NCBI GenBank assembly: GCA_964638585.1
Contig: CAZXAN010000003.1
Span: 30,047-94,046, forward strand
DNA: 64,000 nucleotides
Source of the DNA: an uncultured Candidatus Saccharibacteria bacterium
Lineage (GTDB): Bacteria; Patescibacteriota; Minisyncoccia; Phycocordibacterales; Phycocordibacteraceae
Direction: 5' to 3'
The notes beneath the pieces are model-generated. The model did not search any database, was not told the DNA's origin, and was given only the letters and a program-made list of their open reading frames with translations. The translations under genes and the position numbers were made by a program. Shown in pieces: positions 2,471 to 49,573 of the stretch. The first letter of the stretch is position 1. Each line of letters opens with the position of its first letter.

Positions 2471-2486
2471 TCAAATCAAATAGAGA

Positions 2487-4547: not shown

Positions 4548-4570
4548 GTTTATAAATTTGTATGTGTCAA

Positions 4571-4603
4571 CTAGAGCCTAGCGCCTAATGCCTAGTCGGC
4601 TAG
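4571..4603. repeat. CTAG-heptamer repeat, right arm (inverted)
   Basis: CTAGAGCCTAGCGCCTAATGCCTAGTCGGCTAG. Its reverse complement contains the same 18-mer as 4180-4197. Confidence 0.8.
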
Positions 4604-5692: not shown

Positions 5693-6119
5693 TTGTTTTG
5701 ACCTCTATAGTGCGCAATGTCTCTGCAAGCACTTCAGAAGGGATAGCGGACGCTTTTATAATGTACCCGTCTGCAGAAAGTTTCTTGGCCTTCTCAATAT
5801 CAGAATCTTGCCCTTGGTTTGAGAGTATTATAATCTTCGTTCCTTTAGCTAGATCATCTTTGCGTATCATTTCAAGAGTCTCAAAACCGCCCATGCCAGG
5901 CATAATTAGATCAAGCAAAATAGCGTCCGGTGATTTTGAACCTTCTTTCTTAAGCTCTGCAATAATCTCTTCGCCACCACCAAACACTTTAACGTCATGG
6001 CCGGCATTTCTGAACTTTACTGCGTATAAGTCTAGGAGAAACCTGTCATCATCAACCAAATATATTCTGTATGCCATTGCTTTCAGTATACTATGTCCAG
6101 AATCAAGCAGTTTCGTCAA
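5676..6119 (-). CDS. Stand-alone response-regulator receiver domain protein (CheY/PilH-like)
   Basis: REC-domain signature residues (DD...D...K) present; 147 aa. Confidence 0.8.
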   Translation of the reverse strand: MTKLLDSGHSILKAMAYRIYLVDDDRFLLDLYAVKFRNAGHDVKVFGGGEEIIAELKKEGSKSPDAILLDLIMPGMGGFETLEMIRKDDLAKGTKIIILSNQGQDSDIEKAKKLSADGYIIKASAIPSEVLAETLRTIEVKTIGAVK

Positions 6120-7890
6120 CGGGGAAAAGTTCTCCGCCTAGGGTGTTTATCTCTTCAAACGGGATTACGCCTGAGAGAGCCTTTACGATTGCGTCCTCAC
6201 GCATAGTGAGCATCCCGCTTGCGCGCGCAGCTGCGTAAACACTCTCTTCATTAGATGCGGTAAGAACTGCTTGTTCAATATTCTTATTCATGCGCAATAT
6301 CTCAAAAACACCTGTACGTCCTCGAGTGCCATTTGGACACTCTGTAGTCGGCTTCGCGTGATAAAACTCTTTGAGCGGTGGTAGAAGTTTTTTGTCTTTG
6401 TCTGGTAAGTCTGCAAATTGGCGTTCAAGAAGTGATTTTATGCTAGCTTCTACAGGGAAAGGGTCCCCTGCACCTTCACACAATTTACGCACTAGTCGTT
6501 GCCCTATAACTCCGACCAATGTTGGAGCGATAAGAAATGGGTCAACGCCCATGTCAATAAGGCGCGGTATAGCACCAGTCGCCGTGTTGGTGTGGATGGT
6601 AGAAAAAACGAGATGTCCTGTAAGCGCGGCTTGTACTGCGAGAACGGCGGTCTCTTTATCGCGGATTTCGCCTACCATAATAACGTCTGGGTCTTGACGC
6701 AAGATAGAACGGAGACCTGCAGCAAACGTGTAACCGATTTCTGGGCGCACCTGACTTTGCGCGACTCCCTGAATCTGATATTCAACAGGATCTTCAAGCG
6801 ATACAACGTTTGAAGTCTCTCTATCTGTCTCCGAGAGCATCGCAAAAAGGGTCGTAGATTTACCACTTCCGGTAGGTCCAGCAATAAGGATAATGCCGTA
6901 TGGCACTTTCATCATATCGCGTACAACAACAAGCTGGTCCTTTGAGAATCCTACCGATTCAAGAGTCGCTGTCGCGTCCGATTGGTCAAGAATTCTCATC
7001 ACGACCTTTTCACCGTATTCTGTAGGGAATGTTGACACGCGGAAGTCAATGCGTCTTTTGTCTATTGTTGCTGAGAAACGGCCGTCCTGCGGTTTGCGTT
7101 TCTCATCAAGACGCAATTTTGCGAGTATCTTTATACGTGCAACAACTGCTTCATGCACTTTTGCCGGTAGCTCAAGCGATGTATGCAGATCACCGTCCAT
7201 GCGGAAACGTACACGAGTCTTGGTAGGAGATGGCTCTATGTGTACATCTGAAGAATGTCCGTCAATAGCGTATCTTAAAATCGTAGAAACGATTTTGGTC
7301 ACTGGAGCATCCTCTTTCAAAGCTTCTTTTGTTCCAGTTAACGTAATTTGTTCTTCGCCAAAACTCTGAGCGTCAATAGACGTGACTGACGGCTCTTGCT
7401 GTTTATGTTCTGACGCAGGAGGTTCGGCGCTCATGTCGTATTCAGAAAGAGCTTTGCCTATCTCACCGGAGAGGTTTTGATATGCGCTAATGACGCGATC
7501 AAAATCTTGCTTTGTAATGAGAAAAACCTTATATGGCGTGCCGATTTTGCTTGAAATAAATTGCAACGCATCAAGTGCTTCTATGTTGTCTGGGTCAACA
7601 ACCCCAACTTCAAGCGCTCCGTCTACCATATCAAGCGGGACGAACCCGTAGTGAATTGCAGAATCAATCGGTATATAGCTGAATACCTCTTCATTGGCTG
7701 GAGGATCGCCGAGTATCCTAGAAGGCAGACCATAGGAGTCACCAACCTCCTTAAGTATCTCTTCAACAGAAATCCCACGCTCACTAAAGACATCTACAAG
7801 CGAACGGTTTTTTGCGAGTTCACGCTCAATACTCACCCTGTCATTAGGAGAGATATGTCCCTTTTCAATTAATAGTCCAAAAAAATTCAT
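6103..7890 (-). CDS. pilB: Type IV pilus assembly ATPase (GspE/PilB family)
   Basis: 595 aa with an N-terminal GSPII_E_N-like domain, Walker A GPTGSGKST and Asp/His boxes. Confidence 0.9.
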   Translation of the reverse strand: MNFFGLLIEKGHISPNDRVSIERELAKNRSLVDVFSERGISVEEILKEVGDSYGLPSRILGDPPANEEVFSYIPIDSAIHYGFVPLDMVDGALEVGVVDPDNIEALDALQFISSKIGTPYKVFLITKQDFDRVISAYQNLSGEIGKALSEYDMSAEPPASEHKQQEPSVTSIDAQSFGEEQITLTGTKEALKEDAPVTKIVSTILRYAIDGHSSDVHIEPSPTKTRVRFRMDGDLHTSLELPAKVHEAVVARIKILAKLRLDEKRKPQDGRFSATIDKRRIDFRVSTFPTEYGEKVVMRILDQSDATATLESVGFSKDQLVVVRDMMKVPYGIILIAGPTGSGKSTTLFAMLSETDRETSNVVSLEDPVEYQIQGVAQSQVRPEIGYTFAAGLRSILRQDPDVIMVGEIRDKETAVLAVQAALTGHLVFSTIHTNTATGAIPRLIDMGVDPFLIAPTLVGVIGQRLVRKLCEGAGDPFPVEASIKSLLERQFADLPDKDKKLLPPLKEFYHAKPTTECPNGTRGRTGVFEILRMNKNIEQAVLTASNEESVYAAARASGMLTMREDAIVKALSGVIPFEEINTLGGELFPVDETA

Positions 7891-7893
7891 CGC

Positions 7894-8220
7894 TCATTTT
7901 CGACTTACACTAGTTGTTGATGCGTTCGTAGCCGAGGATCCTGCTAGAGGAGCCAGTGGATCAAGTCTGCCTACAACCTCTGGTGTTATTGGCGTGGTTA
8001 GGTCTACAAGCGCCATAAAGTTTATATTATCAAAAATCTTTGTTGAAAATGAGACTGATTTTAGCTTACTCACTAGGTCTTGGAACTGCATCTGAGCCTG
8101 ACTGCTCTCAACACTTACCGTGAGCGATGGGTCATTCCCAGTATCAGTGAAGAAATACCAATATGCACCGCCTGCGACTACGATCGTGACGATGATTATG
8201 GCGATTGTGTTGGAGTTCAT
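7894..8220 (-). CDS. Hypothetical membrane-anchored protein in the pilus locus
   Basis: N-terminal TM helix, 108 aa, tightly packed between the pilO-like gene and pilB. No recognisable domain. Confidence 0.4.
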   Translation of the reverse strand: MNSNTIAIIIVTIVVAGGAYWYFFTDTGNDPSLTVSVESSQAQMQFQDLVSKLKSVSFSTKIFDNINFMALVDLTTPITPEVVGRLDPLAPLAGSSATNASTTSVSRK

Positions 8221-8241
8221 AATTTAAATATTATATCCGTA

Positions 8242-8805
8242 TCATGAGCGAAGCCAATAGAAACGAATGGTCATTTTGTAAGAGTAAACACCGTTATCAG
8301 AGCCCTTTATTATAAGCTCGCGCACGTCTAGAAGGCGTGCACTCTTCTCAACTCCTATCAAAAACGCTTGGAATGCTGTATACGTACCGACAGCAGAAAG
8401 CGATAGGTCAATAAAGTCAATCGGGCCCGCTTCTAATACAGGTATAGCACCAATAGCATCGGGACCTGAACTATTTTTACTTTTTGCGATCACGTCAATA
8501 TTTGATAGAGAGATGCCAGATCTTGCCGCAAGAGTGTTCAGATCAAGGATTAATCCAACATTATCAACCGAATCTGGGAGAAACGTCTCCAGACGCGCAA
8601 GATTTGTAGGGTCAATGTCGTTTTGTTGTCTGGTTAGCTCAACTTGTTGTTCAGCGTATGTATCTGCAGCTTTAAGAGCTTCATTGTCAGCACTGATTGC
8701 CTCGTTTGTCTTAGATATTGAGCCATTCCATGTTGGATTAATGTATATAAAAAATATTGCTATGGCCACAATGAGTGCTAATGCTGGAATTATACGTGTG
8801 TTCAT
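8242..8805 (-). CDS. PilO-like pilus biogenesis protein
   Basis: N-terminal TM helix, coiled-coil and a C-terminal domain of the pattern seen in PilO. Position in the locus supports the call. Confidence 0.55.
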   Translation of the reverse strand: MNTRIIPALALIVAIAIFFIYINPTWNGSISKTNEAISADNEALKAADTYAEQQVELTRQQNDIDPTNLARLETFLPDSVDNVGLILDLNTLAARSGISLSNIDVIAKSKNSSGPDAIGAIPVLEAGPIDFIDLSLSAVGTYTAFQAFLIGVEKSARLLDVRELIIKGSDNGVYSYKMTIRFYWLRS

Positions 8806-9377
8806 GGCAAAAAGGCTGTGAGCTTAGGGTCAAGCGTTGCAGACAAATCAAACGACACTGACCCGTCTTTGTTTATGCTTATATTGGAGAAGATTGCGTC
8901 TCTTATCCTGCCGTCTTGTGCAAACGCAGTTGAAACAGCGGCAAGGGCGTTGAAACTTTTTGCTATTCCAGAACCTTCAAGCTCAGGCGAGTCAGAATCA
9001 CTTAGCGAAAGCTTGATATCCAAGAAACGTACGCTCGTTGGGAGTATCTTCTCAAGAGAAGAAAAGAAACCAGAAAACGCAATATGTTCATTTATCAATT
9101 TGTCGCTTGAGACAAGACGGTCGCGCAGACGCACAAATCCCTCAACGGTTTCTGTATCAATCTTTTCAATTGCGCTTGAGAGCTTTGCTTCTGCTGTAGC
9201 TAGCGTCTTCAGACGAATTTGCCCATATAAGAAAACACCAATGGCAATAACAAATACGATGCCGAAAATTATATACGCGATAATGCCGAATAAACCTGTA
9301 AAGTCTGCGCTTAGTTTGCGCGCATTACCTGTCTGCGCATGTGGTACAAATGATGTTGGGATAGTAGGAGGGAGCAT
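8802..9377 (-). CDS. PilN-like pilus biogenesis protein
   Basis: Single TM helix and coiled-coil. It overlaps the pilO-like gene by 4 nt. Confidence 0.5.
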   Translation of the reverse strand: MLPPTIPTSFVPHAQTGNARKLSADFTGLFGIIAYIIFGIVFVIAIGVFLYGQIRLKTLATAEAKLSSAIEKIDTETVEGFVRLRDRLVSSDKLINEHIAFSGFFSSLEKILPTSVRFLDIKLSLSDSDSPELEGSGIAKSFNALAAVSTAFAQDGRIRDAIFSNISINKDGSVSFDLSATLDPKLTAFLP

Positions 9378-9437
9378 TCACTTCAGTATACGGTACTTGC
9401 GCAAGTGTGTGCACACACATCTGTGTACAGCGCTTCT

Positions 9438-12074
9438 CTAATACAAATCGTTCAACTTGGCGCGCGTAATAGCTCCGACGTAGCCGGTGGTTTCAATGCC
9501 GTACTTCTGCTGGAAGTCTTTCACTGCGTTGAAAGTTTGGCTGTAGAAACCGCCTGTGATTTCTCCAGTGAAGAGACCTTCCATCGTGAGCGCTGTCTGA
9601 AGCGCCTTTACGTCAGCGGTATAGGGAGAGCCTACCTGCAGGTCGTTAGACCAAGTGTACGTATACTTAGTGCTCGCGCCCAAGACCGAGAATACCGGCC
9701 ATATCTGCGTGCCGGCATAGGTACATGTGTATTTACCACCACTCTCTGCGTTATATGATGAGCACCACGACATACAAGCGTCTTGTCCACCCTCGATGTT
9801 TATCGTACTCGTATACGCTTCACTGTAGTAGGTACAGGCAACAGTGGCTGACGTAATCGTAAACGACCCAACGACCTGTGGGCCAACAGCAGAATATGAC
9901 GCAGTCGCAGGATAGTAGCCGTAGCCGTTATAGGTACCAGTTTGAGAAGCCGAGAAGGTCCCTGCAGGAGTATAGGTAATGACTTCTGTAGAGCCGTTAC
10001 CTCTGGTCCACTCATCACTCGTATAGTCGCGGTAATTAGTGGGCGCATTATTGCAACCTGTGTCACCACTCTTAGCAGCACATGCCTTCACTGAAATATT
10101 TCTATTAAGTCCGGTTACTTTGACAAATAGATTTTGATCTGTGCGTACAGAGCCATTAAGAGTCCATGGGCCACTCACTGAATCAGAAACATATGTTCTC
10201 ACATTGTCTAGAGACGGAGGAGTAGAGACACTGCCGGAAGTCACTGTGAATTGTCTCGCATTACTGGTGCCGTTCGCGTTACCAACTGTGATGTTGTACG
10301 TGCCCGGGGTAACAGGAGCTGGACCCACAAAACACTGTGCACCTGCCGGACAATTATTCAACTCAGACGGAACGATAAAATTCAATCTTGTTAAGAGTCC
10401 GCCAATTGGAGCGGAAAATGGAACAACAAAACCGTTAAAATAAACGGTGCCATTATACGTAAAATCTGTGCCGTAAATGGTGACCTGTGTCCCTATAGGT
10501 CCGGATGTCGGCGAGAGCGAAGTGATTGTAGGCGCTTGTGTAGCTGAACCACTGACGTTCACACTGACGCTTGTTTGTGCTGTTTGACCAGAGTTGTTGG
10601 TAACTGTGAATCTTGGAGCATAATTCCCTGCTTGGTTATAGGAGTGGGTAAATGTTGCCTGTTGGCTTGTCGGATATGCATAAGCTAATGAACCGGAGCC
10701 ACTGCCTGCAGATGCTTCATCTCCCCACACCACACTGTAGTTGAGATTGCCTCCATTTGGATTTGACGCATTCACCGTCCATGTTCCCTGCTGACTGACC
10801 TGAAGCGAGACCGGACCGGAAACACCTGAAATAACTGGCGCTTGTGTGGTTCCGCTCGTAATCGTGAAGTAACTATCGCTTGAGTCGCATGTGGAAGTGC
10901 CGGATTGGCAGACTTCAATTATGTATGAACCATCTGATGGTAAGGATTGTCCTCCAGTAGAACTGTTTGGCCCTCCTTCGTATGAAGCTACCAGCCAGCT
11001 GAATGAAGAACCAGTAACTCTTTTTGCAATCGTGTACGGTGCATTATATGGATACGATGGACATATGTTGCCGGTACAAGGTGCGTAATATGGAGATAAC
11101 TTGATGTCATATGGAAGCCCTAGACACGAGCTCCCAGAAGGACAGATGCGAGAAATAGCAGTCCAGTCAGACCAGGAAATAGTTTGTGTCGTTCCCTTGG
11201 TCCATGTTTCTCCGCCATTAGGAGATGTGACTGTTATTGGTCCTTGTGCTGTTCCACCAGAAGTTACCGTGATGATAACAGTACCGACTGTTTCTTGGCG
11301 AGAGTACCAATCCGCACAAGCAATTTCGCTTGTTCCACTACAGGTGTTATACACTGTCTTCATTAGTTTTGCCGTGTAAGTACCGACAGAGGTGTAGGTG
11401 TGGGGGTTGGTCATGTAACAGATGCCTGCATAAGTGCAATTGTTGTCCCTAATAGGTTCAGAGGTGAGCCCGTCACCGTAGTTTATTGAGTATGGGGTCG
11501 CATATTCCCCCGAATACGCAGATTGAATTGAAAACGTCACAGCAAGAGGAGCCGGTCCAGAAGTCGGGTAGGCAGAGAAAGTATTGCTCGGCTGCGGAGG
11601 AGGAGTGATTCTGCATCCATACAAGCTATTCAATTTCGCTCTCGTGAGCGGGCCGACATAGCCAGTCTGACGGATGCCGTACTTGGCTTGGAATTGGACA
11701 ACGGCAGAAGCAGTATTTTCAATAAATACTCCATCATCGGATACCAGAGTGGCTGGCTGACCCTCAAAAGAGACTGGATCGCCAACACCCTCTTTTTGAA
11801 GAACAGTATCAAGTGCTCGCACATCGCTCCCATTGCTTCCTATGGTGAGATTGGCGTTAAACGTATGACACCAAGGTTGAGAACTGCCACTTCCACCACT
11901 TGAACCCGTGAGAGCAGAGTTGACATTTGAAATAGTCGCGCTGTCTGCACCAAAGGACGAAAGGAGCGAGAGGATAGCCTGCACCTGCGCATTCGTCAGA
12001 CCGGCGGCCTGCGTAAGCGAAGGAGAGAGCACTACAGAAACCGCAAGAACAGCGCTAAATAAGTACTTTTTCAT
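9438..12074 (-). CDS. Large secreted protein with N- and C-terminal peptidoglycan-binding (PG_binding_1-like) domains and central Ig/PKD-like Cys-rich modules
   Basis: Signal peptide present. PG-binding-like segments are found near both termini (...QFQAKYGIRQTGYVGPLTRAKLNSLYG and ...DFQQKYGIETTGYVGAITRAKLNDLY). The central region is Thr/Ser/Gly-rich with paired Cys residues. Confidence 0.7.
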   Translation of the reverse strand: MKKYLFSAVLAVSVVLSPSLTQAAGLTNAQVQAILSLLSSFGADSATISNVNSALTGSSGGSGSSQPWCHTFNANLTIGSNGSDVRALDTVLQKEGVGDPVSFEGQPATLVSDDGVFIENTASAVVQFQAKYGIRQTGYVGPLTRAKLNSLYGCRITPPPQPSNTFSAYPTSGPAPLAVTFSIQSAYSGEYATPYSINYGDGLTSEPIRDNNCTYAGICYMTNPHTYTSVGTYTAKLMKTVYNTCSGTSEIACADWYSRQETVGTVIITVTSGGTAQGPITVTSPNGGETWTKGTTQTISWSDWTAISRICPSGSSCLGLPYDIKLSPYYAPCTGNICPSYPYNAPYTIAKRVTGSSFSWLVASYEGGPNSSTGGQSLPSDGSYIIEVCQSGTSTCDSSDSYFTITSGTTQAPVISGVSGPVSLQVSQQGTWTVNASNPNGGNLNYSVVWGDEASAGSGSGSLAYAYPTSQQATFTHSYNQAGNYAPRFTVTNNSGQTAQTSVSVNVSGSATQAPTITSLSPTSGPIGTQVTIYGTDFTYNGTVYFNGFVVPFSAPIGGLLTRLNFIVPSELNNCPAGAQCFVGPAPVTPGTYNITVGNANGTSNARQFTVTSGSVSTPPSLDNVRTYVSDSVSGPWTLNGSVRTDQNLFVKVTGLNRNISVKACAAKSGDTGCNNAPTNYRDYTSDEWTRGNGSTEVITYTPAGTFSASQTGTYNGYGYYPATASYSAVGPQVVGSFTITSATVACTYYSEAYTSTINIEGGQDACMSWCSSYNAESGGKYTCTYAGTQIWPVFSVLGASTKYTYTWSNDLQVGSPYTADVKALQTALTMEGLFTGEITGGFYSQTFNAVKDFQQKYGIETTGYVGAITRAKLNDLY

Positions 12075-12153
12075 AAGGTAAATATTGTTCTTAATAATGC
12101 AACAATAATATAGCTTTATTCTAATAAATCAACCCCCTATCGAACCCTATAGT

Positions 12154-12285
12154 CTAATACAACTCGTTTAGTTTAGCTCTAGTAACAGGACCAACAAAGC
12201 CTGTGTAATCAATGCCGTACCTGAGCTGGAAATCTTTCACGGCAGTGAATGTCTGATTGTAGAAACCTCCGATGATATCACCTGC
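12154..12285 (-). pseudogene. Orphan 43-codon remnant of a PG-binding domain (GDIIGGFYNQTFTAVKDFQLRYGIDYTGFVGPVTRAKLNELY*)
   Basis: Homologous to the C-terminus of the 878-aa protein. It is bounded upstream by an in-frame TAA and has no start codon. It lies between the pilM stop and the 878-aa gene. Confidence 0.7.
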
Positions 12286-12297
12286 TTAGTGGATAAA

Positions 12298-13398
12298 CTA
12301 TTCATCAAGCTTGCGGAGAGCGAGGCCAACAGCGACGGCAAATTCGGGACCGATATTTTCAAGAACCGAACGCATAAAGGCCGGTGCAGATGTCTTGGCA
12401 AATGGGTCGGCGACGCGCACGTCTATAGAGAAAATATTTTTTGCATACGCGCTGAGCTCTTTTGTCACACCACCACCACCTGTGAGGACAATAGAGGTTA
12501 TAGATTTTCTGTGCGCAGTCTCATACTGTATCAGGACACGACGCACCTCTGAGAAGATACGTGAGAAAACGAGTTCTGGAGAGCCGAGTGTACTCTCTCC
12601 GCCAATGCCCTCTTCTTTTTTCATAACCTCCGCTCGTGCAAGAGAGACGTTGCCAGATACTGAAATTGCGCGAGTGATATCTTGGCTCCCGATACTTATA
12701 GAATGAGAGAGAGCGACAACACCATGTTCTATAACATATGCCTTGGTTGAAGCCGCACCTACGTCAAGTATCATTACCGACTTAACAGGCTCGTCAATCG
12801 TCGCGCGAATAGTACTAAAGATCTCTATTTCGTAGAAACTCGCTAAGAGATTTGCGCCGGCGACAATGCTTTGAAGTTGAGAAAGTTCATCATTATGCAC
12901 AGCGACAAGAAGCACTTCAACTTTTTCTACAGAATCTGTCGTATCGCTGGCGGATTCTTTTGACTGTTTTGGTCCAGATTGAGGTACGATAAACCAGTCA
13001 AATTGCACTTCGCTCATAGGCACAGGGATATATTTGCGCGCTTCAAGCTCTATGACAGTCTTCTGTTCTTTTGGATCAGAACGATATGGCAATTCCACTA
13101 GAATAATCAAGGAGCGTGCGAACGGAATAGAAACACCGCAATTATTAGTTGTTACCTTAGATTCGCGCAAAAGATCCTTCAAAGTTTCGGTAATTTGTTC
13201 GGCAGACAGGTTGGTCGCCTGACCCACTTCACCGCCGCCGTATGGGCCAAGAGCTAGCTCGCCATAGGTCTCTAATACTGCCTGCCCCTTCTCCTTGCGC
13301 AATTGCACGACCTTAAGCGACGAAGAACCTATGTCTACGCCAAGAACGCTCTTTTCCTTTTTTGCGAATAAATTATTAAAGAAAGACATATTTACCAT
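12298..13398 (-). CDS. pilM: Type IV pilus assembly protein PilM (actin-like ATPase)
   Basis: VLGVDIGSSSLKVVQL... is an actin-fold N-terminus. The chosen start MVNMSFF avoids overlap with the divergent comFC gene. Confidence 0.85.
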   Translation of the reverse strand: MVNMSFFNNLFAKKEKSVLGVDIGSSSLKVVQLRKEKGQAVLETYGELALGPYGGGEVGQATNLSAEQITETLKDLLRESKVTTNNCGVSIPFARSLIILVELPYRSDPKEQKTVIELEARKYIPVPMSEVQFDWFIVPQSGPKQSKESASDTTDSVEKVEVLLVAVHNDELSQLQSIVAGANLLASFYEIEIFSTIRATIDEPVKSVMILDVGAASTKAYVIEHGVVALSHSISIGSQDITRAISVSGNVSLARAEVMKKEEGIGGESTLGSPELVFSRIFSEVRRVLIQYETAHRKSITSIVLTGGGGVTKELSAYAKNIFSIDVRVADPFAKTSAPAFMRSVLENIGPEFAVAVGLALRKLDE

Positions 13399-13406
13399 AT
13401 AATACC

Positions 13407-14042
13407 ATGATGAGGCTCTTTGATTTCTTATTCCCTCCTCGCGCAGATGAGATAGCTGTGCGCGACATTTCAATAGATGATTTTTTGGTAAAAGTCTCTC
13501 CAAGTCTAGTCACATGTACAAGACCTGCCACAATTACCTTGCTGCCATTCCACGATCCTGTTGTGCGTTCTGCTATACACGAAGCGAAGTACCACGGTAG
13601 CGCCCGAGCATTTGAACTGCTCGCTCTCGCTCTCGCCGACTATCTCCGCGATGCAGATGATGTTGGACGTACGACGTCCAACACATTCCTAATACCTGTG
13701 CCGTTGGGAAAAGAAAGAAGAAAAGAGCGTGGATATAATCAGATAGAAGAGGTGGCGAAGTTAGCTGGAAAAGAATTAGGGATGCAAGTAGAAACTGACT
13801 TACTCATCCGTACGCGCGAAACAATATCCCAGATTTCGCTTCCGCGCGAAGAACGGGAAAAGAATTTGCGTGGCGCATTCATTGTCTCGCCGAAGCTCGA
13901 AGAGCGGAGGCGGATCGATCCAACATGCACATACATATTAATAGATGACGTCATCACTACTGGCGCAACGCTCCAATCCGCCATTGATGCTCTTAAATCA
14001 GCCGGCGCGCTTCATATCATTCCGCTCGCCTTGGCTCACTAA
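13407..14042 (+). CDS. comFC: ComF family protein (phosphoribosyltransferase domain)
   Basis: C-terminal PRTase motif ILIDDVITTGATL. Divergent from pilM. Confidence 0.8.
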   Translation: MMRLFDFLFPPRADEIAVRDISIDDFLVKVSPSLVTCTRPATITLLPFHDPVVRSAIHEAKYHGSARAFELLALALADYLRDADDVGRTTSNTFLIPVPLGKERRKERGYNQIEEVAKLAGKELGMQVETDLLIRTRETISQISLPREEREKNLRGAFIVSPKLEERRRIDPTCTYILIDDVITTGATLQSAIDALKSAGALHIIPLALAH

Positions 14043-16303: not shown

Positions 16304-17347
16304 TTAAAAATTAAATAACGGATTAATAATGCCGGCTGTGGCGAGAGCGTTTGTGAGATTCAAAAGCGCGAGAGCGATAACGATTATACCAGCAGTCTTG
16401 AAGAAGATACCCTTCCATGGCTTGTGTGCAATATTGAGGGAACCAAACGATAGAAGTGCGAGAACAGGCAGGGTGCCGAGCGCAAATACAAACATTGTCA
16501 TCGCTCCCTGCATAAAGTCGCCAGTAGATAGAGCGTAGATCTGCATAGACTGCGTGAATCCGCATGGTAAAAAGAATGTGCCTACGCCAACAAGAACTGG
16601 AGCAAGATAATGATCATGTTTACTGCCCTTTACCACGTGCTTGCCAAAGAAAGCTGGCAAAGTGAATTGCAATTTCTTCGTGAAGTGGAACACGTCAAGC
16701 AGGTTGACACCGAGAATTAGCATTACGAGAGCCACGATTACACCCAAGACGATATTTGCTGTAAGCCCTAGATGCATAGAGTTGCCCAAGAGGCCTACAG
16801 CCCCGCCGAGAACAAAGAACCCGACGATACGGCTTATGTGAAAGAGCGCGAGAGTGCGCCACGTGCCACCCTCTCTCGCAGAGCTCGCCGATAGCGAGAG
16901 CACAAGCCCACCGACTATTGCGAGACATGAGGAAACCGAGGCAATGAGGCCGATAATAAATGCTGTGCTGTAACTCACAGAACCGCCACCAATAAGATTG
17001 GTGAGGCCTGCCTTCTGTAACAGAATAAAACCTAAGATAATCACAACTGCGATTGGTAACGCATATGCAAAGTCGCCCCACCCGGCGTTATGCGCAACTT
17101 TTTCAACAGAAATAGTGTAGCCCTTATCGTGCACAAGCTTGGTCAACTCACTCGCAATTTGTTCAGGTGTTCCACCAAAGTCGCCTGTGACGGTGACTTG
17201 GTGAGTATCTAAAGACACCTTCACGCTCTTTATATGAGATTGTTCTGTGAGTATCTGCTCAATAAGCACCACGCAAGCGGCACAATGTGTGCCACTAACG
17301 TGAAATGTATATGTCTTTTGATTTGATTCAGGAGTCAGAACCGCCAT
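16304..17347 (-). CDS. HMA (heavy-metal-associated) domain fused to a polytopic DsbD_2/TauE-like membrane domain
   Basis: N-terminal HVSGTHCAACVVLIE metal-binding MxCxxC fold followed by 6-8 TM helices. Confidence 0.65.
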   Translation of the reverse strand: MAVLTPESNQKTYTFHVSGTHCAACVVLIEQILTEQSHIKSVKVSLDTHQVTVTGDFGGTPEQIASELTKLVHDKGYTISVEKVAHNAGWGDFAYALPIAVVIILGFILLQKAGLTNLIGGGSVSYSTAFIIGLIASVSSCLAIVGGLVLSLSASSAREGGTWRTLALFHISRIVGFFVLGGAVGLLGNSMHLGLTANIVLGVIVALVMLILGVNLLDVFHFTKKLQFTLPAFFGKHVVKGSKHDHYLAPVLVGVGTFFLPCGFTQSMQIYALSTGDFMQGAMTMFVFALGTLPVLALLSFGSLNIAHKPWKGIFFKTAGIIVIALALLNLTNALATAGIINPLFNF

Positions 17348-19814: not shown

Positions 19815-20333
19815 TTAAGGCGTTACGAGCGCCTTTATTTCAAGTTGAAGCGTACCACCCAACGTATCAGTGAGAGTTATGAACCTATCAATCCGACCGA
19901 CTCCTGCTGGACCGTGTGCATTCGGGTCATACACAACACGAACTGTGCGACTTTCGCCCGCCTTGATTAGTTCGTTGGCGGGCGGGACATAGCCCATGCC
20001 TGGCATTTTGAACGGTCCCTTGATATTTCCGTCTGGCAGAACAATAAAGGCAGATGTGCACATACAGGATGTAAGAACGGTGCTTACTTTTATATCTTCG
20101 CTCGTTGAATTATTCACAACAAACTCTTTAATCACGTTACCGTCTCTCATTGAGATTGTGCCGAAGTCGTAGAAGATTTCCGGCGCGGTGAGGACGCTTT
20201 TTGAAGTGCTTCTCGCTCCTGGAGCTCCTTGAACAGAGGCCGTTGTACTTCCCTTTCCTACATATCCCCAGACAAATAAGCCTACGAACACCAATAGAAC
20301 GACGCCGATACTTATACTAGTTTTTGATTCCAT
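19815..20333 (-). CDS. DUF1573 domain protein
   Basis: Membrane anchor plus a beta-rich domain carrying an SCMCT motif analogous to the DUF1573 SCGC signature. Confidence 0.6.
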   Translation of the reverse strand: MESKTSISIGVVLLVFVGLFVWGYVGKGSTTASVQGAPGARSTSKSVLTAPEIFYDFGTISMRDGNVIKEFVVNNSTSEDIKVSTVLTSCMCTSAFIVLPDGNIKGPFKMPGMGYVPPANELIKAGESRTVRVVYDPNAHGPAGVGRIDRFITLTDTLGGTLQLEIKALVTP

Positions 20334-20787: not shown

Positions 20788-23124
20788 TTATAACTCTTTT
20801 GCCTTAAGACGAAGCGAGTTAGAGACCACAGAGACGCTTGAGAGAGCCATCGCGAGACCAGCGAAGACTGGCGAGAGTAGCCAGCCGAATACTGGATAGA
20901 ATACCCCGCCGGCGAGCGGTATGCCAACAATGTTATAGAAGAACGCCCAGAAAAGATTCTGTTTAATTCCTCTCATGGTTAATTTAGAAAGTCTCACGGC
21001 TTTCACGAGTTTAGATATGTCGCCATGGAGGAGTGTGATGCCGGCGCTCTCTATCGCGACGTCCGTTCCTGTTGCCATGGCGATGCCGACGTCCGCCTGT
21101 GCGAGCGCAGGAGCATCGTTAACGCCATCTCCTGCCATCGCAACAATCATTCCCTGCTTTTGCAACTCTTTAATTTTATTTAGTTTGTCCTCTGGCATCA
21201 CCTCTGCGACAACGTCATCAATGCCGACTTGGTCTGCGATATATCGCGCCGTGTTCTTATTATCTCCGGTGAGCATCACTATCTTTATTCCTAACGCATG
21301 CAAGTCTCTCACAGCATGCACAGCTTCTGGCTTTATCGCATCAGCAACCATTGCCACCGCGAGAACATTATCATCTTCTACGAGAATAACTGGCGTCTTA
21401 CCTTCTATCGTATCTTTTTCAAGAGACTCCGGTAACTTGGGGGTTGAACCCCCAAGTTGCTCACCAGCGAGTTTGACGCTCCCAACATGATACTGAACGC
21501 CGTCTATCTTGCCAGTAATCCCCTTCCCTTTCAGCATTTCAAAATTTTCTACAGGTACGAACTCTATGTTTTTTTCTTTTGCATACGCAATCACTGCATG
21601 AGCAATTGGGTGTTCTGACTTATTCTCAAGAGATGCAAGAATCGCAATTATTTCAGCATCACTTTTATCTGAATAATTTTTAAGGGAGACGAGCTCCGGC
21701 TTCCCTCTCGTCAGAGTTCCAGTTTTATCTACGACGACCACGTCCACCTTGTGCAACTTCTCAAGCGTCGCCGCATCTTTGACCAGAATCCCCTCCTTCG
21801 CTCCCTTGCCGACGCCGACGATTATCGCAGTTGGCGTCGCGAGACCGAGCGCACATGGGCAAGCGATAACCAAGATGCTAACAAAAGATACAAGACCATA
21901 AGATAGAGCCTGGGCGAATCCTAGATACTGCGAGCCTACGATAAGCCATGCACCAAGCGCAACAAAAGCTATAACTAAAACAATGGGCACAAAGACGCCC
22001 GAGATTTTATCTGCTAAAGCTTGTATGGGCGCTCTGCTCCCCTGCGCCTCTTCTACCATCTTCACAATATGCGCGAGCATCGTCTCCGAGCCTACTTTTG
22101 TTGCTTTAAAAGTAAACGAGCCCGACGTGTTAATTGTGCCTGCGATCACAGAATCGCCAACCTCTTTCTTCACAGGCATCGGCTCGCCAGATATCATAGA
22201 CTCGTCCACGTGTGACGAACCATCTACTAAGACACCGTCGACTGGGATCTTCCCTGCTGGCTTCACGATAATCAGGTCGCCATGCACTACCTTATCAATT
22301 GGAATTTCTAATTCTTTGCCATCGCGTATCACGAGTGCCGTCTTCGCCTGCATATTCAAGAGCTTCTCTATCGCATCCCCTGTCTTTACCTTCGCTCGCG
22401 CCTCCAGATATTTACCAAGCGCGATAAAAGTTATGACGATAATAGTCACGTCATAATATGTGGCATCTACGTTAATAAACGGTCGTAAACTATCTTCAAA
22501 GGCTGTGACAGCAAAGCTATAGACATAGGCAGCCAACGTCCCAAGCCCAATAAGCGTGTCCATATTCGCCTTGCCATACCGCAAGAATCTATAAAAGCCA
22601 AGCAGATACGGCTTGCCAACTACGAACAGCACGTAAGTCGCCATCAAGGGCAGCAAGTGGTGGAAAAATTCTTTCCAAAAAGTAGACATTTCTGGAGCGG
22701 TCCCAAATTGTGCGAGAATCTCCCACGTCAGAATAAACGCGCTGATAACAGATAGAGGGATTGCAGACATAACCATCGTGCGCATGTCCGCGATCTCTGC
22801 TAATTTATCTGCCTTAGACTGATTAAGACCTAGGTGTCCTGCGTGTTCGCTCTCTGACATCCCCATCTCACTTGCGCTGAGCGAGGCCGAAGTGGACGAA
22901 GTCGGCATTGGGTCAGCAATAATTAAAGAATATCCAAGCGGTTCTATTTTTTTAGAAAGCTCTTTCGGATTCGTCTTCGCAGAGTCGTATGAAATCTTCG
23001 CGGCTTCAGTTCCAGGATTCACTTCTATCGAGTGCACGCCGTCAACCTTTTTAAAAGTCTTTTCTATAATGCTCGCACAACTCGCACAGTGCATTCCTTT
23101 AATCTTGTATGTTTCTGTTTTCAT
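20788..23124 (-). CDS. copA: Copper-translocating P1B-type ATPase
   Basis: N-terminal HMA (GMHCASCASIIEKT), CPC motif in TM6 (ACPCALGLATP), DKTGTLT phosphorylation site and GDGVNDAPAL. Confidence 0.95.
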   Translation of the reverse strand: MKTETYKIKGMHCASCASIIEKTFKKVDGVHSIEVNPGTEAAKISYDSAKTNPKELSKKIEPLGYSLIIADPMPTSSTSASLSASEMGMSESEHAGHLGLNQSKADKLAEIADMRTMVMSAIPLSVISAFILTWEILAQFGTAPEMSTFWKEFFHHLLPLMATYVLFVVGKPYLLGFYRFLRYGKANMDTLIGLGTLAAYVYSFAVTAFEDSLRPFINVDATYYDVTIIVITFIALGKYLEARAKVKTGDAIEKLLNMQAKTALVIRDGKELEIPIDKVVHGDLIIVKPAGKIPVDGVLVDGSSHVDESMISGEPMPVKKEVGDSVIAGTINTSGSFTFKATKVGSETMLAHIVKMVEEAQGSRAPIQALADKISGVFVPIVLVIAFVALGAWLIVGSQYLGFAQALSYGLVSFVSILVIACPCALGLATPTAIIVGVGKGAKEGILVKDAATLEKLHKVDVVVVDKTGTLTRGKPELVSLKNYSDKSDAEIIAILASLENKSEHPIAHAVIAYAKEKNIEFVPVENFEMLKGKGITGKIDGVQYHVGSVKLAGEQLGGSTPKLPESLEKDTIEGKTPVILVEDDNVLAVAMVADAIKPEAVHAVRDLHALGIKIVMLTGDNKNTARYIADQVGIDDVVAEVMPEDKLNKIKELQKQGMIVAMAGDGVNDAPALAQADVGIAMATGTDVAIESAGITLLHGDISKLVKAVRLSKLTMRGIKQNLFWAFFYNIVGIPLAGGVFYPVFGWLLSPVFAGLAMALSSVSVVSNSLRLKAKEL

Positions 23125-24217: not shown

Positions 24218-24236
24218 AACAAGGTTAAACCTTGTT
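24218..24236. repeat. Perfect 19-bp palindrome AACAAGGTTAAACCTTGTT overlapping the AbiEii stop codon
   Basis: 9-bp arms. No U-run follows on the minus strand, so it may be a protein-binding site rather than a terminator. Confidence 0.5.
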
Positions 24237-24912
24237 ATTCTAATATGATTTTGTTGACTACTTGAGGCACTTCTTTTATAAAATAGTCCTTTGCTTCTTT
24301 CCAGCTTGCTTCAAAGAAAATCTCTGGGGCAGGATCACTCTCGGCATCTTCAAAATAGACCAGACTTTTTAAGATATGGTGATAGTCATGGGCCACAAAA
24401 GGATACTGCTCTTTCACTCTTTTCATTAAATTCTCCAATGACTCTATATTCTTTGCGCACCAGTACAGGTCAAAGAAATCGCGCTTCCGCCCGCGTTGCG
24501 AAATGGCGATTATTTTCATAACGGCGATATCCAGCGGCTGTAGAATTTTTATTGAACCGTATTGAATAAAACTTTGATTGGGGACAAAGAACGGATAGGC
24601 AATAAAACTTATTTTGGCCTTAAAGAGTTCGCCATATACTGTATTTTTAGTATTTATGGTCGTCTCCCATTCGTTATTTCCTAAAAAATTTGTGAGTAGT
24701 TCAGATGTATCAAAGTCTGTTGCTGTTGTGAAAAAGTCCAAGTCTACTGACTTGCGATTCCCTACTTGCAGAGCTAGAGCTGTGCCACCAGCAAGATACC
24801 AATCACCTTCTGCGAGCCACGGTTGTTCAGATAAAAAACCAAACGCCTTTTTTGTTGCTACCGGTATTATACTAAAATTTGACTCTATTTGTTCTCTAGA
24901 AGCAGTGTCCAT
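24235..24912 (-). CDS. Nucleotidyltransferase AbiEii/AbiGii-like toxin (DUF1814 family)
   Basis: GGTALALQVGNRKSVDLDFF motif and 225-aa length are typical of type IV TA / abortive-infection NTases. Confidence 0.7.
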   Translation of the reverse strand: MDTASREQIESNFSIIPVATKKAFGFLSEQPWLAEGDWYLAGGTALALQVGNRKSVDLDFFTTATDFDTSELLTNFLGNNEWETTINTKNTVYGELFKAKISFIAYPFFVPNQSFIQYGSIKILQPLDIAVMKIIAISQRGRKRDFFDLYWCAKNIESLENLMKRVKEQYPFVAHDYHHILKSLVYFEDAESDPAPEIFFEASWKEAKDYFIKEVPQVVNKIILE

Positions 24913-31758: not shown

Positions 31759-33729
31759 TTAGAACTCTTGGAAGATTTGCGATACGTTCACTGTCGCCGA
31801 TCTTGTAATAGTATTGTCACCAACAGTCGTACAGGTAATGGTGTAGGTTGATCGTGCAGAGATGGCAGGAGCGATTGGAGAGCCGGTTGAAAAGGTGTTG
31901 CTAGCACTTGCGTTCCCGCTCGCGAGGATACCAGAGGGGCCAGAGACCGTACAAGACTTAACTCCTGTGGCGCTCCAAGTGATGGTGGAGGGGGTGCCTG
32001 TGCGTACGCGAGATGGGTTAGCGCTTATGGTTGCATCTGGAGCTAGGACCTGTACAGAGGCAGACGCTACTTGAGATCTACCTCCTGGCCCATCGCACCA
32101 AAATACATAGGTCTTTGTACCTGCTGTACTTAGTACACCAGTAGAGGTGTTGCCAGTGCTGTTTGTGCCGGTGAATCCGGTCGCCGTACAGCTAGTAACG
32201 CTACCTGAGACTGTCCATCTTATTGTTGTTGACTGTCCTGTCTCAATTTGAGATTTGTCGACTGATAGCGTGGCGGTGGGGGCGCAGGCTTGAATGCTGC
32301 AGGCTTGGCTTGTCGCCCCTGAACAAGCGGATCCGCCATTGAGAGGTGCCGGGTTTGTACAGGTCCTTGTCTGTGTACCGCCACCACAACTTACAGAACA
32401 AGCTGACCACGCTGACCAGCCGCCATTTATGCTGCATGTAGGTGGGTTGGTGGCGCCGTTCGTGCATGGATTGAAAGTAGTGCAGGTCGGTGGATTGTTG
32501 GCGCCGTTTGAACATGTCGCGTTTGAAACCACAATATTGGTCCACGCGCCACAGTTGTTATTCTCGTTTGATTCTACGATAACACCGTTTGGTTGTGGCG
32601 GGAGATCGGCACAAACGCGGACAGAATAGGAACCATTTGATGGGAATGTGTATGACTTGCTAAATGTGCCACTACTGCCAGCGGCTAGAGTCGTCATGTT
32701 AACTGAAGATGTGTCTGTGATGTTTCCTGTAGGATTACCGTTCGGTTTATCATTCACTTGCATGAAATTGTTGAAAGACGCACCTGTACTGCCTGTACCG
32801 ATATTGCTTATAGTCGCGCTAAGAGTGGTAGCGACACCTGCTGTTGCAGTTGTTGGAGTAACTGCGCCTGCTGTGAGGTCTGGTGGTCCGAGGACGGAGA
32901 AGTAGACTCTCGCCGGACTAGCAGGAGCCATCATCTGGAAGTTCCAACACTCGGCTTCTGCGTAATACCCTGACCTGGGCGTCATACCACCAGCTGGAAA
33001 TCCGTTATTTGCCTGATTCACGACTGTTATGTTAGCACCGCCCGTAATATCCCGTACCCACCGAGGACTGCTCTGGTCGTATGTGCCGGGAGGCAGAGCG
33101 CCGCCCGTCCGACTCATGACGCCCGGAGTGTTATATGGGCCGTAATAGAATGTTCCAAAACGTATCGGCTGCATCCAGCTTCCGGTATTTTCATACGTAA
33201 ACCAGCCGGGGCCTTGTAGGAGTTTGGTCGTTCCTATAGTAGTGGGAACTGTCCAGGTCAGAGGAGGATTGTACGGTGCACAGGTCCGTACACCTGTATA
33301 CATATCGTAAGTACAATTGTTATAGTCGTAGTACCGAGTATAGGTGACAGTAGTGGGGGTTGGGTCGTATACAGTAACCTGACAGCCGTGGACCGAATTT
33401 GTTGAAGCAAGATAGAAGGTAGCATTTTCTCCATACGGCACAGGATTTTTCTCCATACTCAGTATTATTGTCCCAGAACCGTTGTATTGAAATCCTCCAC
33501 AGCCTTCCGCTGTGACCTCTTCACAATAACCATAGGGCGGAGCGCCATGACACTGTAAATATGTGCATGCAGAAACTGCATAATTGCAAACTCCCGATCC
33601 GTCATTTTCGCAACATACACTGCCATCTGGGTTACATGTTTGAGATGCGTTCGCCACATCTGCATATCCAATAAATGAAAAACCAGCTATGACAATAGCT
33701 ATCGAGAAATATGACAGTGCGGTTTTCAT
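31759..33729 (-). CDS. Secreted Cys-rich protein with a thrombospondin type-1 (TSP1)-like repeat and two C-terminal Ig-like repeats
   Basis: Signal peptide present. The segment [35 protein letters not shown] matches the TSP1 WSxWSxCSxxCGxGxxxRxRxC pattern. It is followed by two ~80-aa repeats containing TI(R/T)W(T/S)..G..SCT. Confidence 0.65.
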
Positions 33730-34544
33730 ATACGAGTATTAGTAATAATGATCGCCTGTGCCAGAGGTTTTTGTTCTATTAACGATTTGACGGATATCAT
33801 GATGAACACTGGCATATCGGCTTTTACGTCAGACAGTGTGGCAGGTGTTCTGGCGTGAAGTATCTTCGCTCTCTGTGTCGAGTCAACGCTATATACGGGG
33901 ATATTATCTATTAAAGATACGCTTTTTGTCGTAGTGCTCACACCACCAGTCGGTATGTATGTTTTATATTCAAGCACCTTGTTCGTCACGTCTAGTCTAA
34001 CAACTTGAACACTAATATATATATTTTCTGCATTTAACGATAATTGGATTTGTTCTTTATTATATTCAGAAAACTTCTGTGTCGCATTGAAATCAATAGC
34101 CACTACCCCGCTCGACACACCGTCTATAATCGGAGCGAATGTCGCCATGAGATTAGTACCAGCTTTCACATCCGCAATATTCACTTCTCTGGACTTCATA
34201 TCTTTTTCCACCCCTTTGTCATCGGTAAGCGAGAGAGTCTCGGTAATGACAGTATCGGGTTTTATCTTGAGAGTGGTTTGTTTGGATGATGTGGCAATAG
34301 TTATCTCCAATTTATCTTGGTCCACACTCACAACCGTACCTTCAAGTGTCGGCAGATCAACAATGGTATTGGTCGCAGGAGACGTAGTGACAGATGATTT
34401 TTTCATCTGCGGTATATATACCAATGCAAAAGCAATAACGAGAATTAAGACCCCTACCCCAAATGCTATTTTCATTTCGTCGGTAACTGTCACAATGGTT
34501 CTAGTATACGTCATGAGTCTCCAGTCAACGCGCCCTATCCACAC
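33726..34544 (-). CDS. Hypothetical membrane-anchored protein
   Basis: TM helix near the N-terminus and no recognised domain. The true start is probably internal (MTYT.. or MKIAF..). Confidence 0.4.
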
Positions 34545-34832: not shown

Positions 34833-35141
34833 CTATTTTGCACGCCAATTCTTTCCGAGGATAGCGGTAAACATTCCCTCTGTCGTCGCGTAACTTTTTA
34901 ACTTGTCTCGCTTAGCTGGGTTCCTGAGTTCCTCTATTGCTTTTCGGGTTTCTGCGTTTGGGGTATGACTTGGATAGGGACAGTCTGCTTCGAGAACGAG
35001 TCTCCGGTCACGCACGAATTGTTTTAACATCGAATTCATCACTGTCGTCAGAGGCACTCCAATTTCTTGAGCTGTCTGTTTCGCATCGTCGCGAAGCTTT
35101 TTGGGCGTTTTTACCGTAAGAGTCGTATTCATACTCATCAT
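34833..35141 (-). CDS. dinJ: Antitoxin DinJ (RelB/DinJ family)
   Basis: A ribbon-helix-helix-like N-terminus (TLTVKTPKKLRDDAKQTAQEIGVPLTTVMNSMLKQ), located 6 nt upstream of yafQ. The exact start is uncertain (M at 35141 or 35132). Confidence 0.65.
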   Translation of the reverse strand: MMSMNTTLTVKTPKKLRDDAKQTAQEIGVPLTTVMNSMLKQFVRDRRLVLEADCPYPSHTPNAETRKAIEELRNPAKRDKLKSYATTEGMFTAILGKNWRAK

Positions 35142-35230
35142 ACTACTTTTAGTACGATTTATTGTCAAACGGTAAAGTTATTCCCATGTCTCCGGTGCCC
35201 TAACTCTTGAAATGTTACAATTGTAGTTAT

Positions 35231-49069: not shown

Positions 49070-49573
49070 CTACGGAAGTCCCGATGCGGGAGGCATCGTA
49101 AGGTGCGGTTTTGATGGAGGGATGGGCGGTATTGAAACTGGCACAACTTTCTTCAGTGGTTCAATAAGTGTCGCCAGTACAAAAATGATAACCGTGATTA
49201 CTGCTGACGCCAGACAATAGACACACAAGGCGTTTATTAAGAAAATTTGAACTGCTGTTGTTATAACTGAGACTATGAGGCCTACAAGCGCGAACGCTTG
49301 AAGCACTCTGCGCAGAAGCTTGTCAAAGATTGCGAGCTCCAGAGCTGCAAGTACAAAGAGAATGCTGTAAAAAAGCACTCCAAAATCTGCTGTAGGGATC
49401 CCGAAGATACGCGAATATTGGCTGTTCGCCACGATGTTACAGCCCGAGAGGTTCTCAATGTTGCAGATAAGCGGAGTACCGCTAGACTCGTGTTGAGCGA
49501 GATAGATAGAGTCGGCAAGCCCAGCAAAGGCGAAAATCAGTATTAGAACAACACCTAATCTCTTCATTCCCAT
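49070..49573 (-). CDS. Vitamin K epoxide reductase (VKOR) family protein
   Basis: Loop Cys pair CNIENLSGC and active-site CVYC within a TM helix. Four to five TM helices. Confidence 0.7.
   Translation of the reverse strand: MGMKRLGVVLILIFAFAGLADSIYLAQHESSGTPLICNIENLSGCNIVANSQYSRIFGIPTADFGVLFYSILFVLAALELAIFDKLLRRVLQAFALVGLIVSVITTAVQIFLINALCVYCLASAVITVIIFVLATLIEPLKKVVPVSIPPIPPSKPHLTMPPASGLP

Follow-up and report, generated by a model that had tools for sequence, protein, structure and literature searches.

A minus-strand gene in the window analysed here (a 64-kb stretch of contig CAZXAN010000003.1, assembly GCA_964638585.1, from an uncultured Candidatus Saccharibacteria bacterium) encodes a secreted protein that contains a genuine thrombospondin type-1 repeat (TSR). 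We propose, with a probability of about 0.6, that it is an exported modular surface protein in which a variable head is mounted on a conserved base, with a short TSR inserted into this base and a C-terminal tail serving for retention. The open reading frame (ORF) starts with ATG and specifies 656 amino acids, among which there is an even number of cysteines (28). The initial annotation of this stretch had picked out a TSP1-like segment ([46 protein letters not shown]), which corresponds to residues 437-482 (window 32284-32421), two Ig-like repeats behind it and an N-terminal half rich in Cys, Gly, Tyr and Thr. All of these are borne out below, and the minus strand, a CARDB domain (residues 283-393), a signal peptide and a conserved C-terminal tail are added to them.

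The repeat is a TSP1 domain of the canonical thrombospondin (C3-C4) type. The Pfam profile TSP_1 (PF00090, clan CL0692) scores 38.4 bits against a gathering score of 21.6 (E 1.4e-9) over residues 437-482, and the match spans profile positions 2-49 of 49. The TSP1_spondin and TSP1_ADAMTS models score under their cut-offs, which points to the canonical thrombospondin subtype. In a phmmer search against PDB chains the best matches are the TSRs of human thrombospondin-1 (TSP-1; 7yyk, 3r6b, 1lsl) and those of UNC5B/D (E 5e-15 to 4e-13), followed further down by ADAMTS13/5, BAI1, MIC2, complement C6-C9, properdin and TRAP. The initial annotation had staked its assignment on such a profile scan and on the compatibility of the cysteine spacing with a three-disulfide layer. 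The scan returned a significant match, and all six cysteines (444, 448, 457, 469, 477 and 482) align with C1-C6 of TSR2/3 of TSP-1 in the HMMER alignments, so that the spacing is not incompatible with such a layer. By homology this alignment implies the disulfides C444-C477, C448-C482 and C457-C469. A six-frame motif scan of the whole 64 kb found no further WSxW/CSxxCG combination in an open frame.

TSRs have been defined as domains of about 50 residues with six Cys, two Trp and two Arg on three antiparallel strands, in which Cys, Trp and Arg (CWR) layers are stacked and two bottom disulfides connect strands I and III (Xu et al., bioRxiv 10.1101/779553). The top disulfide is C3-C4 in the group of thrombospondin, ADAMTS, UNC5 and properdin (bioRxiv 10.1101/779553). 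In the protein described here, the WxxW motif of strand I is present as W438 and W441 (WSAW), at least 90% conserved in the mixed alignment A2 and invariant in the short-form alignment A3. The ladder on strand II holds a single Arg (R455), with Gln453 at the other RxR position, and the stretch TQTR is invariant in the short form. The single Arg does not exclude TSR membership because CCN3, an accepted member, likewise has incomplete CWR layers (bioRxiv 10.1101/779553).

In the full-length AlphaFold2 (AF2) model, built on a 23-sequence alignment, both the head and the TSR have a predicted local distance difference test (pLDDT) score below 50. Remodelled alone with a 73-sequence TSR alignment, the TSR reaches a mean pLDDT of 91.1 and is predicted as an elongated, three-stranded antiparallel fold. 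Foldseek ranks 1-50 in the PDB for this model are essentially all TSR-containing entries, with a query-normalised template modelling score (TM-score) of 0.5-0.73, including UNC5D (E 6e-6), TSP-1, ADAMTS13, C6-C9 and properdin. Genes for a VKOR homologue and a DsbD-family protein (an HMA-DsbD_2 fusion) are also encoded in the window, indicating that a machinery for extracytoplasmic disulfide chemistry is present.

The repeat differs from its eukaryotic counterparts in its spacing. We classified 389 TSRs, collected from relatives and genomic loci, by the distances W-C1, C1-C2, C2-C3, C3-C4, C4-C5 and C5-C6, which read 2-3-8-11-7-4 in the present repeat. The short pattern (2-·-8-·-7) occurs in 48 of 119 metagenomic, prokaryote-like TSRs, where the canonical pattern (5-·-10-·-9) is found 14 times, and in 101 of 130 TSRs from GTDB genomes (canonical, 3), a set gathered with patterns favouring the short form and hence with an inflated share of it. 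Among the 140 TSRs of 14 eukaryotic proteins the short pattern is absent, a result free of this gathering bias, and 106 are canonical. Across 17 short-form sequences (alignment A3) the residues GGW..W..C...[18 protein letters not shown]....C are invariant. These spacings suggest that the TSR belongs to a compact, prokaryote-specific short form and is not a recent eukaryotic import; in the literature searched, this spacing class appears to be undescribed. The nearest TSRs are found in metagenome-assembled genomes (MAGs) of Rickettsiales (88% identity) and in Moraniibacteriota, Bdellovibrionales and Gammaproteobacteria (80%), and the best eukaryotic identity is 70% (oyster). As to the origin of the repeat, which the initial annotation had wished to see traced, a nearest-neighbour and identity analysis of the 389 TSRs did not separate those of prokaryotes and eukaryotes cleanly. 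The direction of transfer can therefore not be read from identity, and the indel signature alone is informative.

Compared to TSR2/TSR3 of TSP-1 and to UNC5, the repeat shares its six cysteines one to one, the WSxW and CSxxCG motifs, the Arg before C3 and the P-x-P...GG signature, at 48-56% identity in the Foldseek alignments and with the same predicted three-stranded, layered fold. It differs in being prokaryotic, in coordinated deletions (gaps against TSP-1 of 3 residues in strand I, 2 in the strand I-II region and 2 in strand III, as aligned by HMMER), in having two aromatic layers instead of three and in carrying Gln453 in place of the first Arg of the RxR pair. Eukaryotic TSRs bear C-mannosylation and O-fucosylation, modifications that are not expected on this prokaryotic repeat.

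The remainder of the protein is modular as well. The N-terminus ([17 protein letters not shown]...ANA/S) is an ordinary Sec-type signal. The only 19-residue segments exceeding 1.6 on the Kyte-Doolittle scale begin at residues 2-10, nothing hydrophobic lies outside residues 2-28, and AF2 predicts a helix at residues 4-16, inside the signal peptide. The head (residues 29-282) has the composition that the initial annotation had described (T 11.8%, G 11.8%, P 9.1%, Y 9.1%, 12 Cys). For residues 25-282, Pfam, NCBIfam and PDB sequence searches gave no family, structure or profile match, and an exhaustive HMMER search of 1.84e9 cluster representatives returned only the protein itself and one match that we judged compositional. 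This match, P0121, is Thr-rich with near-identical tandem repeats and was dropped as a relative of the head; by eye its repeats look cadherin-like. The CARDB domain scores 45.4 bits against a gathering score of 22.7 and is predicted as a beta-sandwich with a pLDDT of about 85-94. It is followed by a Cys-rich linker whose homologous counterpart is kept in relatives; where these lack a TSR, its two C[ST]NGA[NT]NPPTC copies flank a larger Cys-rich core (alignment A1). The linker represents an unannotated mini-domain of the Patescibacteria family. The two Ig-like repeats behind the TSR are modelled as beta-sandwiches (residues 485-562 and 565-650, pLDDT about 90) and share 33% identity (E 2e-13). 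Foldseek matches of the full model are generic Ig-array proteins only, such as complement C3 and alpha-2-macroglobulin. This architecture is best read as that of a modular protein that is exported via Sec, stabilised by disulfides and presumably located at the cell surface.

Relatives with a taxonomic name belong to Nomurabacteria, Paceibacterota, Minisyncoccia, Parcubacteria, Kaiserbacteria and Moraniibacteriota. In an alignment of 22 relatives, the C-terminal CARDB domain, the Cys-rich linker, the two Ig-like repeats and the tail are conserved and the N-terminal regions are highly variable. Hundreds of homologues exist for this base, and none for the head among the representatives searched. 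Members of this CARDB family such as P0003, P0008, P0013 and P0029 share the base and a ...VNVxPxFQEF tail at 35-54% identity over residues 280-656 and are named 'CARDB domain-containing protein' or 'thrombospondin type-1 domain-containing protein' at NCBI, whereas the head is unique to the present protein and the TSR occurs in a subset only, at varying positions. P0003, which at 54% identity over 58% of the query is the closest relative, contains the whole base with another Cys-rich segment at the position of the TSR. P0029 has its TSR immediately before the Ig repeats and lacks CARDB, and in P0066 the TSR replaces CARDB ahead of the linker. The TSR, standing at other positions in some relatives and missing in others, is therefore a module that has been shuffled.

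The same short TSR is found in other contexts. P0024 combines a type IV pilin N-terminus (PF07963) with four short-form TSRs sharing about 80% identity with the TSR described here. In P0114, two short TSRs are joined to an esterase whose domain shares 29% identity (E 2e-19) with that of the 1066-residue esterase encoded near the TSR gene, and P0043 pairs TSRs with a polysaccharide deacetylase domain (PF01522). Further fusions involve, besides PF01522, dockerin (PF00404), cohesin (PF00963), PG_binding_1 (PF01471) and DUF11 (PF01345) domains. A regular expression for the pilin N-terminal methylation motif (G/FTLIE-type) also finds TSR ORFs at six GTDB loci (L008, L050, L062, L065, L071 and L073) from Rickettsiales, Bacteriovoracaceae, Alphaproteobacteria and Moraniibacteriota MAGs.

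The protein ends in a short tail that recurs throughout this family. A hydrophobic-x-E-x-COOH ending is present in 67 of the 106 prokaryote-like relatives, 58 of which have Pro at position -6 and Phe or Tyr at -4; in the present protein position -6 is occupied by Q instead of the usual P. None of the 14 eukaryotic matches ends in this way, and only 4 of 170 unrelated ORFs at the fetched loci do so, one of them with a clear ...KKKPAFIEN tail. Two flavours can be distinguished, ...VNV[IVT]PxF[QEK]EF as in the protein described here and ...KKKPx[FY][IK]E[ND], which follow different preceding domains. When TSR proteins are restricted to those of named genomes, 10 of 30 complete Patescibacteria ORFs bear the tail versus 0 of 25 from other named groups. 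Besides the present gene, carriers lie among the relatives P0002-P0120 and at loci L007, L010, L012, L013, L016, L024, L029, L038, L059, L061, L077, L085 and L086. In the AF2 model the tail comes after the last strand, with no strand past residue 650. No sortase- or exosortase-type signal (LPXTG, PEP-CTERM) was recognised at the C-terminus: the protein ends 0-1 residue past the motif, and since no transmembrane (TM) helix follows it, the motif is not a signal of either kind. NCBIfam scans of the tails and relatives gave no model for the tail and no paper describing it was found in the literature searched, so that this conserved tail of a Patescibacteria family appears to be undescribed there. 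We regard the tail as a possible motif for anchoring or sorting that is specific to the lineage. A second ending, [WY][KR]E[VI]xP(x1-3)-COOH, is seen in TSR proteins of Moraniibacteriota, Yanofskybacteria and Bdellovibrionales MAGs (L011, L015, L028, L034, L064 and L066; P0064 and P0116) and may be a variant of the P-x-[FY]-x-E-x tail.

To analyse the distribution of the repeat, two peptide patterns of the short form were scanned over 185,579 species-representative genomes and the matches confirmed by tblastn. The scan was based on the short-form alignment A3, the mixed alignment A2 being too diverse for this purpose. This yielded 223 confirmed loci in prokaryotic species representatives, almost all from metagenome-derived genomes. 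Among the best 80 of the 223 loci, 37 belong to Patescibacteria, 10 to Gammaproteobacteria/Pseudomonadota, five each to Rickettsiales, Bdellovibrionota and Archaea (four DPANN and one Methanosarcinales), three to Planctomycetales, two each to Omnitrophota and other Alphaproteobacteria, and 11 are unclassified. The statement of the initial annotation that the fold is rare in bacteria holds only insofar as a small fraction of species have it; in uncultured lineages it recurs. About half of the 106 prokaryote-like relatives of the protein carry TSRs. Many of the lineages concerned are generally regarded as host- or prey-dependent. An enrichment of TSRs in such lineages is suggestive, the counts per group being raw and the ranking favouring query-like sequences. 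The occurrence of TSP_1 in bacteria is existing database knowledge, as illustrated by automated names such as 'thrombospondin type-1 domain-containing protein [Candidatus Moraniibacteriota bacterium]', and the gene described here is one of many. No paper dealing with thrombospondin type-1 repeats of the candidate phyla radiation (CPR), DPANN or Bdellovibrio came up in the literature searched, and their concentration in host-dependent uncultured lineages appears to be undescribed there; only type-3 repeats, in giant genes of Omnitrophota, were encountered.

TSRs were also seen on viral contigs. A 38.8-kb IMG/VR contig (L090:3749-4789) has a gene for a 346-amino acid protein bearing a pair of short-form TSRs. 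The adjacent genes are of phage type and specify an exonuclease, a single-stranded DNA-binding protein (SSB) and a methyltransferase, and with such neighbours this contig is a possible vehicle for TSR transfer. Four other viral contigs (L093, L094, L102 and L103) carry arrays of 7-12 divergent TSR-like repeats with other Cys patterns.

Based on these elements, we propose the following model. The chromosomal gene of a Patescibacteria (Paceibacterota-like) bacterium would give rise to a protein that is exported via Sec, stabilised by disulfides and displayed at the cell surface. Its conserved base, composed of CARDB, the Cys-rich linker, the two Ig-like domains and the tail, would bear a fast-evolving orphan head, and the TSR would have entered the base through domain shuffling. 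The protein would project from the cell while the P-x-F-x-E-x tail presumably holds the C-terminus near the envelope. The TSR may serve as a rigid, laddered stalk and/or as an adhesive module, and the variable head may provide binding specificity for a partner cell or matrix. The adhesion role suggested by the initial annotation is plausible, given the architecture and the lineages that carry such repeats. The identity and order of the domains, the signal for export, the Cys pattern and the distribution of the family are shown by the data above, whereas the surface location, the binding and the function of the tail are our inferences. Several points weigh against this model. The support from AF2 and Foldseek is not independent, because known TSR structures were among those used to train AF2 and eukaryotic TSRs were present in the alignment supplied to it, and the disulfide geometry was checked through sequence alignment alone. 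The taxonomic pattern consists of raw counts from a scan whose patterns and ranking prefer query-like sequences, and the presence of TSRs in Gammaproteobacteria and Planctomycetales MAGs makes the link with host dependence non-exclusive. The adjoining groES/groEL genes and the toxin-antitoxin pair say nothing on adhesion. A wider proposal is that the tail is a new kind of Patescibacteria sorting or anchoring signal, a linear motif at the free C-terminus without a TM segment, that tethers many diverse secreted surface proteins, the present one among them, to the envelope, a pilus or a dedicated receptor, and that the short TSR is a prokaryotic subfamily spread horizontally among episymbiotic and predatory lineages as a module for cell-cell contact; we put this forward tentatively, as a possibility that is more doubtful than probable.

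Other functions have to be weighed against surface adhesion. The protein could be a structural component of the envelope, similar to an S-layer, in which the TSR is a mere rigid spacer and no cell is recognised. CARDB and Ig-like arrays are indeed generic surface scaffolds, as reflected in the generic Ig-arrays retrieved with the full model, the closest relative P0003 does without the TSR, which is hence dispensable, and the gene lies beside the housekeeping genes groES/groEL. An orphan, fast-diverging head over a conserved base is typical of binding proteins, however, and relatives such as P0024 fuse TSRs to type IV pilin N-termini, pili being mediators of attachment in Saccharibacteria. We consider a purely structural role unlikely. 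It is rather improbable that the protein is a secreted enzyme or toxin with a catalytic orphan head, which the TSR, CARDB and Ig domains would target to a substrate. Relatives do join short TSRs to enzymes, as in P0114 and in P0043 with its PF01522 domain, but the head is without any family, structure or profile match in the searches above, and its Thr/Gly/Pro/Tyr-rich composition with 12 Cys, together with its low AF2 confidence, suggests no known catalytic fold.

Another question is whether the TSR was recently gained from a eukaryote, as part of a mimicking effector directed at the matrix or a receptor of a eukaryotic host. TSRs in curated databases are overwhelmingly eukaryotic, CSVSCG and WSxW resemble the thrombospondin motifs that bind CD36 and heparin, and both the 70% identity to the oyster TSR and the incomplete separation in the nearest-neighbour analysis would fit such a gain. 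The coordinated short-form spacing, by contrast, does not occur in any of the 140 eukaryotic TSRs sampled but prevails in prokaryotes, the nearest TSRs come from prokaryotes (80-88% identity), and the GC content at the TSR gene (0.475-0.489) is near that of most of the window, leaving a recent eukaryotic origin highly improbable. Nothing was found in favour of a eukaryotic fragment in a bacterial bin, created by assembly or contamination, and its probability is close to nil: the gene overlaps its upstream bacterial neighbour by 4 nt and is 89 nt away from groES, and an artefact is excluded by the identical protein in the same gene order on 8 contigs of up to 255 kb, four of which stem from four sequencing runs.

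The proposed surface protein can be compared to several known adhesion systems. Apicomplexan TSR adhesins (TRAP, CSP, MIC2), members of which are among the PDB matches, likewise place a single TSR in a modular extracellular protein of a host-dependent organism, but they are eukaryotic, TM-anchored and built from divergent TSR subtypes, and their similarity is much weaker (E 7e-4 to 0.8). The LPXTG/sortase-anchored adhesins of Gram-positive bacteria (microbial surface components recognizing adhesive matrix molecules, MSCRAMM) are alike in their variable distal N-terminal region, Ig-like stalk and short C-terminal motif, whereas the present protein ends at the motif, with neither TM helix nor basic tail. 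In the modular type IV pilins of Streptococcus sanguinis, adhesive modules are reportedly grafted onto pilins. This is paralleled by relative P0024, and the window holds a complete type IV pilus cluster; the present protein, unlike these pilins, has an ordinary Sec signal and no class III pilin motif (no N_methyl match). Little is known of how ultra-small, host-dependent Patescibacteria recognise and attach to partner cells; nearly all of these bacteria are uncultured. The present gene shows that a module of matrix and adhesion proteins, familiar above all from animals and apicomplexan parasites, also has a compact, prokaryote-specific version, which in these organisms is found shuffled between surface proteins, pilins and secreted enzymes. 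The small disulfide-laddered domain, which can be expressed recombinantly, the variable head and the conserved tail offer handles on episymbiont attachment and anchoring. If the tail is a true sorting signal, the surface proteome of Patescibacteria would become predictable from sequence.

The genomic neighbourhood is mixed. Upstream of the TSR gene lies a gene for a 272-amino acid membrane-anchored protein without a family match, and its stop codon overlaps the ATG of the TSR gene (ATGA, 4 nt), which suggests that both are probably co-translated. A homologue of this protein (37% identity, E 2e-35) is located directly upstream of P0003. A conserved neighbour that would explain the tail was not found among the relatives, as the 272-amino acid protein accompanies the closest relative only and the neighbours of the others are unrelated. 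Downstream are groES and groEL, 89 nt from the TSR gene; this GroEL falls in a 90%-identity cluster whose named members are 'Patescibacteria group bacterium' and 'Candidatus Paceibacterota bacterium', which together with the CPR names of the relatives points to a bacterium of the Patescibacteria. Beyond the 272-residue gene come an ORF resembling the RelB antitoxin, whose Pfam match is weak and sub-threshold, and a YafQ/ParE-like toxin. The initial annotation had placed the gene among host-interaction-type surface proteins, which is loosely true of the complete type IV pilus cluster (window 1-13503) some 18 kb from the TSR gene, but not of its immediate neighbours: a toxin-antitoxin pair, groES/groEL, a protein of no known family and an esterase. 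The features are listed in the table below.

Table. Features of the TSR gene and of the surrounding window.
Feature	Position in window	Strand	Remarks
Whole ORF, secreted multidomain protein	31759..33729	-	656 aa, 28 Cys
Signal peptide, residues 1-28 (MK...ADVANA/SQ)	33646..33729	-	By inspection
Orphan N-terminal head, residues 29-282	32884..33645	-	Thr/Gly/Pro/Tyr-rich, 12 Cys
CARDB domain, residues 283-393	32551..32883	-	Pfam PF07705, E 1e-11
Cys-rich linker, residues 397-433	32431..32541	-	Two copies C[ST]NGA[NT]NPPTC
Thrombospondin type-1 repeat, short prokaryotic form, residues 434-484	32278..32430	-	Pfam, PDB, AF2
Ig-like repeat 1, residues 485-563 (Cys514/Cys545)	32041..32277	-	AF2, internal repeat, kept in relatives
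Ig-like repeat 2, residues 564-650 (Cys593/Cys633)	31780..32040	-	AF2, internal repeat, kept in relatives
Free C-terminal tail QIFQEF-COOH	31762..31779	-	Match to conserved motif (P)-x-[FY]-x-E-x-COOH
272-aa membrane-anchored protein, N-terminal TM anchor	33726..34544	-	Upstream of TSR gene
Toxin-antitoxin pair	34833-35168	- (34833-35168)	Just upstream of operon; at locus L001, 1904-2173
Secreted BD-FAE/alpha-beta-hydrolase esterase, 1066 aa	35207-38407	+	Divergently transcribed
AbiEii-type nucleotidyltransferase toxin	24235-24912	-	24.2-24.9 kb
VKOR homologue, extracytoplasmic disulfide-forming	49070..49573	-	Pfam PF07884, E 1.8e-25; unlinked
Four pilin genes	9-569, 566-1087, 1078-1689, 2487-2897		Pilus cluster
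A24 prepilin peptidase	1653-2417		Pilus cluster
T2SSF protein	2973-4178		Pilus cluster
PilT-like ATPase (T2SSE)	4604-5692		Pilus cluster
PilB-like ATPase (T2SSE)	6103-7890		Pilus cluster
PilO	8242-8805		Pilus cluster
PilN	8802-9377		Pilus cluster
PilM	12298-13503		Pilus cluster
Secreted protein, 878 aa	9438-12074		Between pilN and pilM
DsbD-family protein (HMA-DsbD_2 fusion)	16304-17347	-
DUF1573 protein	19815-20333	-
HMA-containing P-type ATPase	20788-23124	-

Some neighbouring products deserve a brief description. About 800 C-terminal residues of the 1066-residue esterase are unannotated and contain Gly-rich tracts and '...FTWTC..GG..SC' mini-domains resembling those of many relatives. The 878-residue secreted protein of the pilus cluster combines PKD with PG_binding_1, the latter in two matched stretches. 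The genes for the HMA-DsbD_2 fusion, the DUF1573 protein, the HMA-containing P-type ATPase and the VKOR homologue are metal/redox envelope genes, and the ATPase is probably a pump for copper or another heavy metal.

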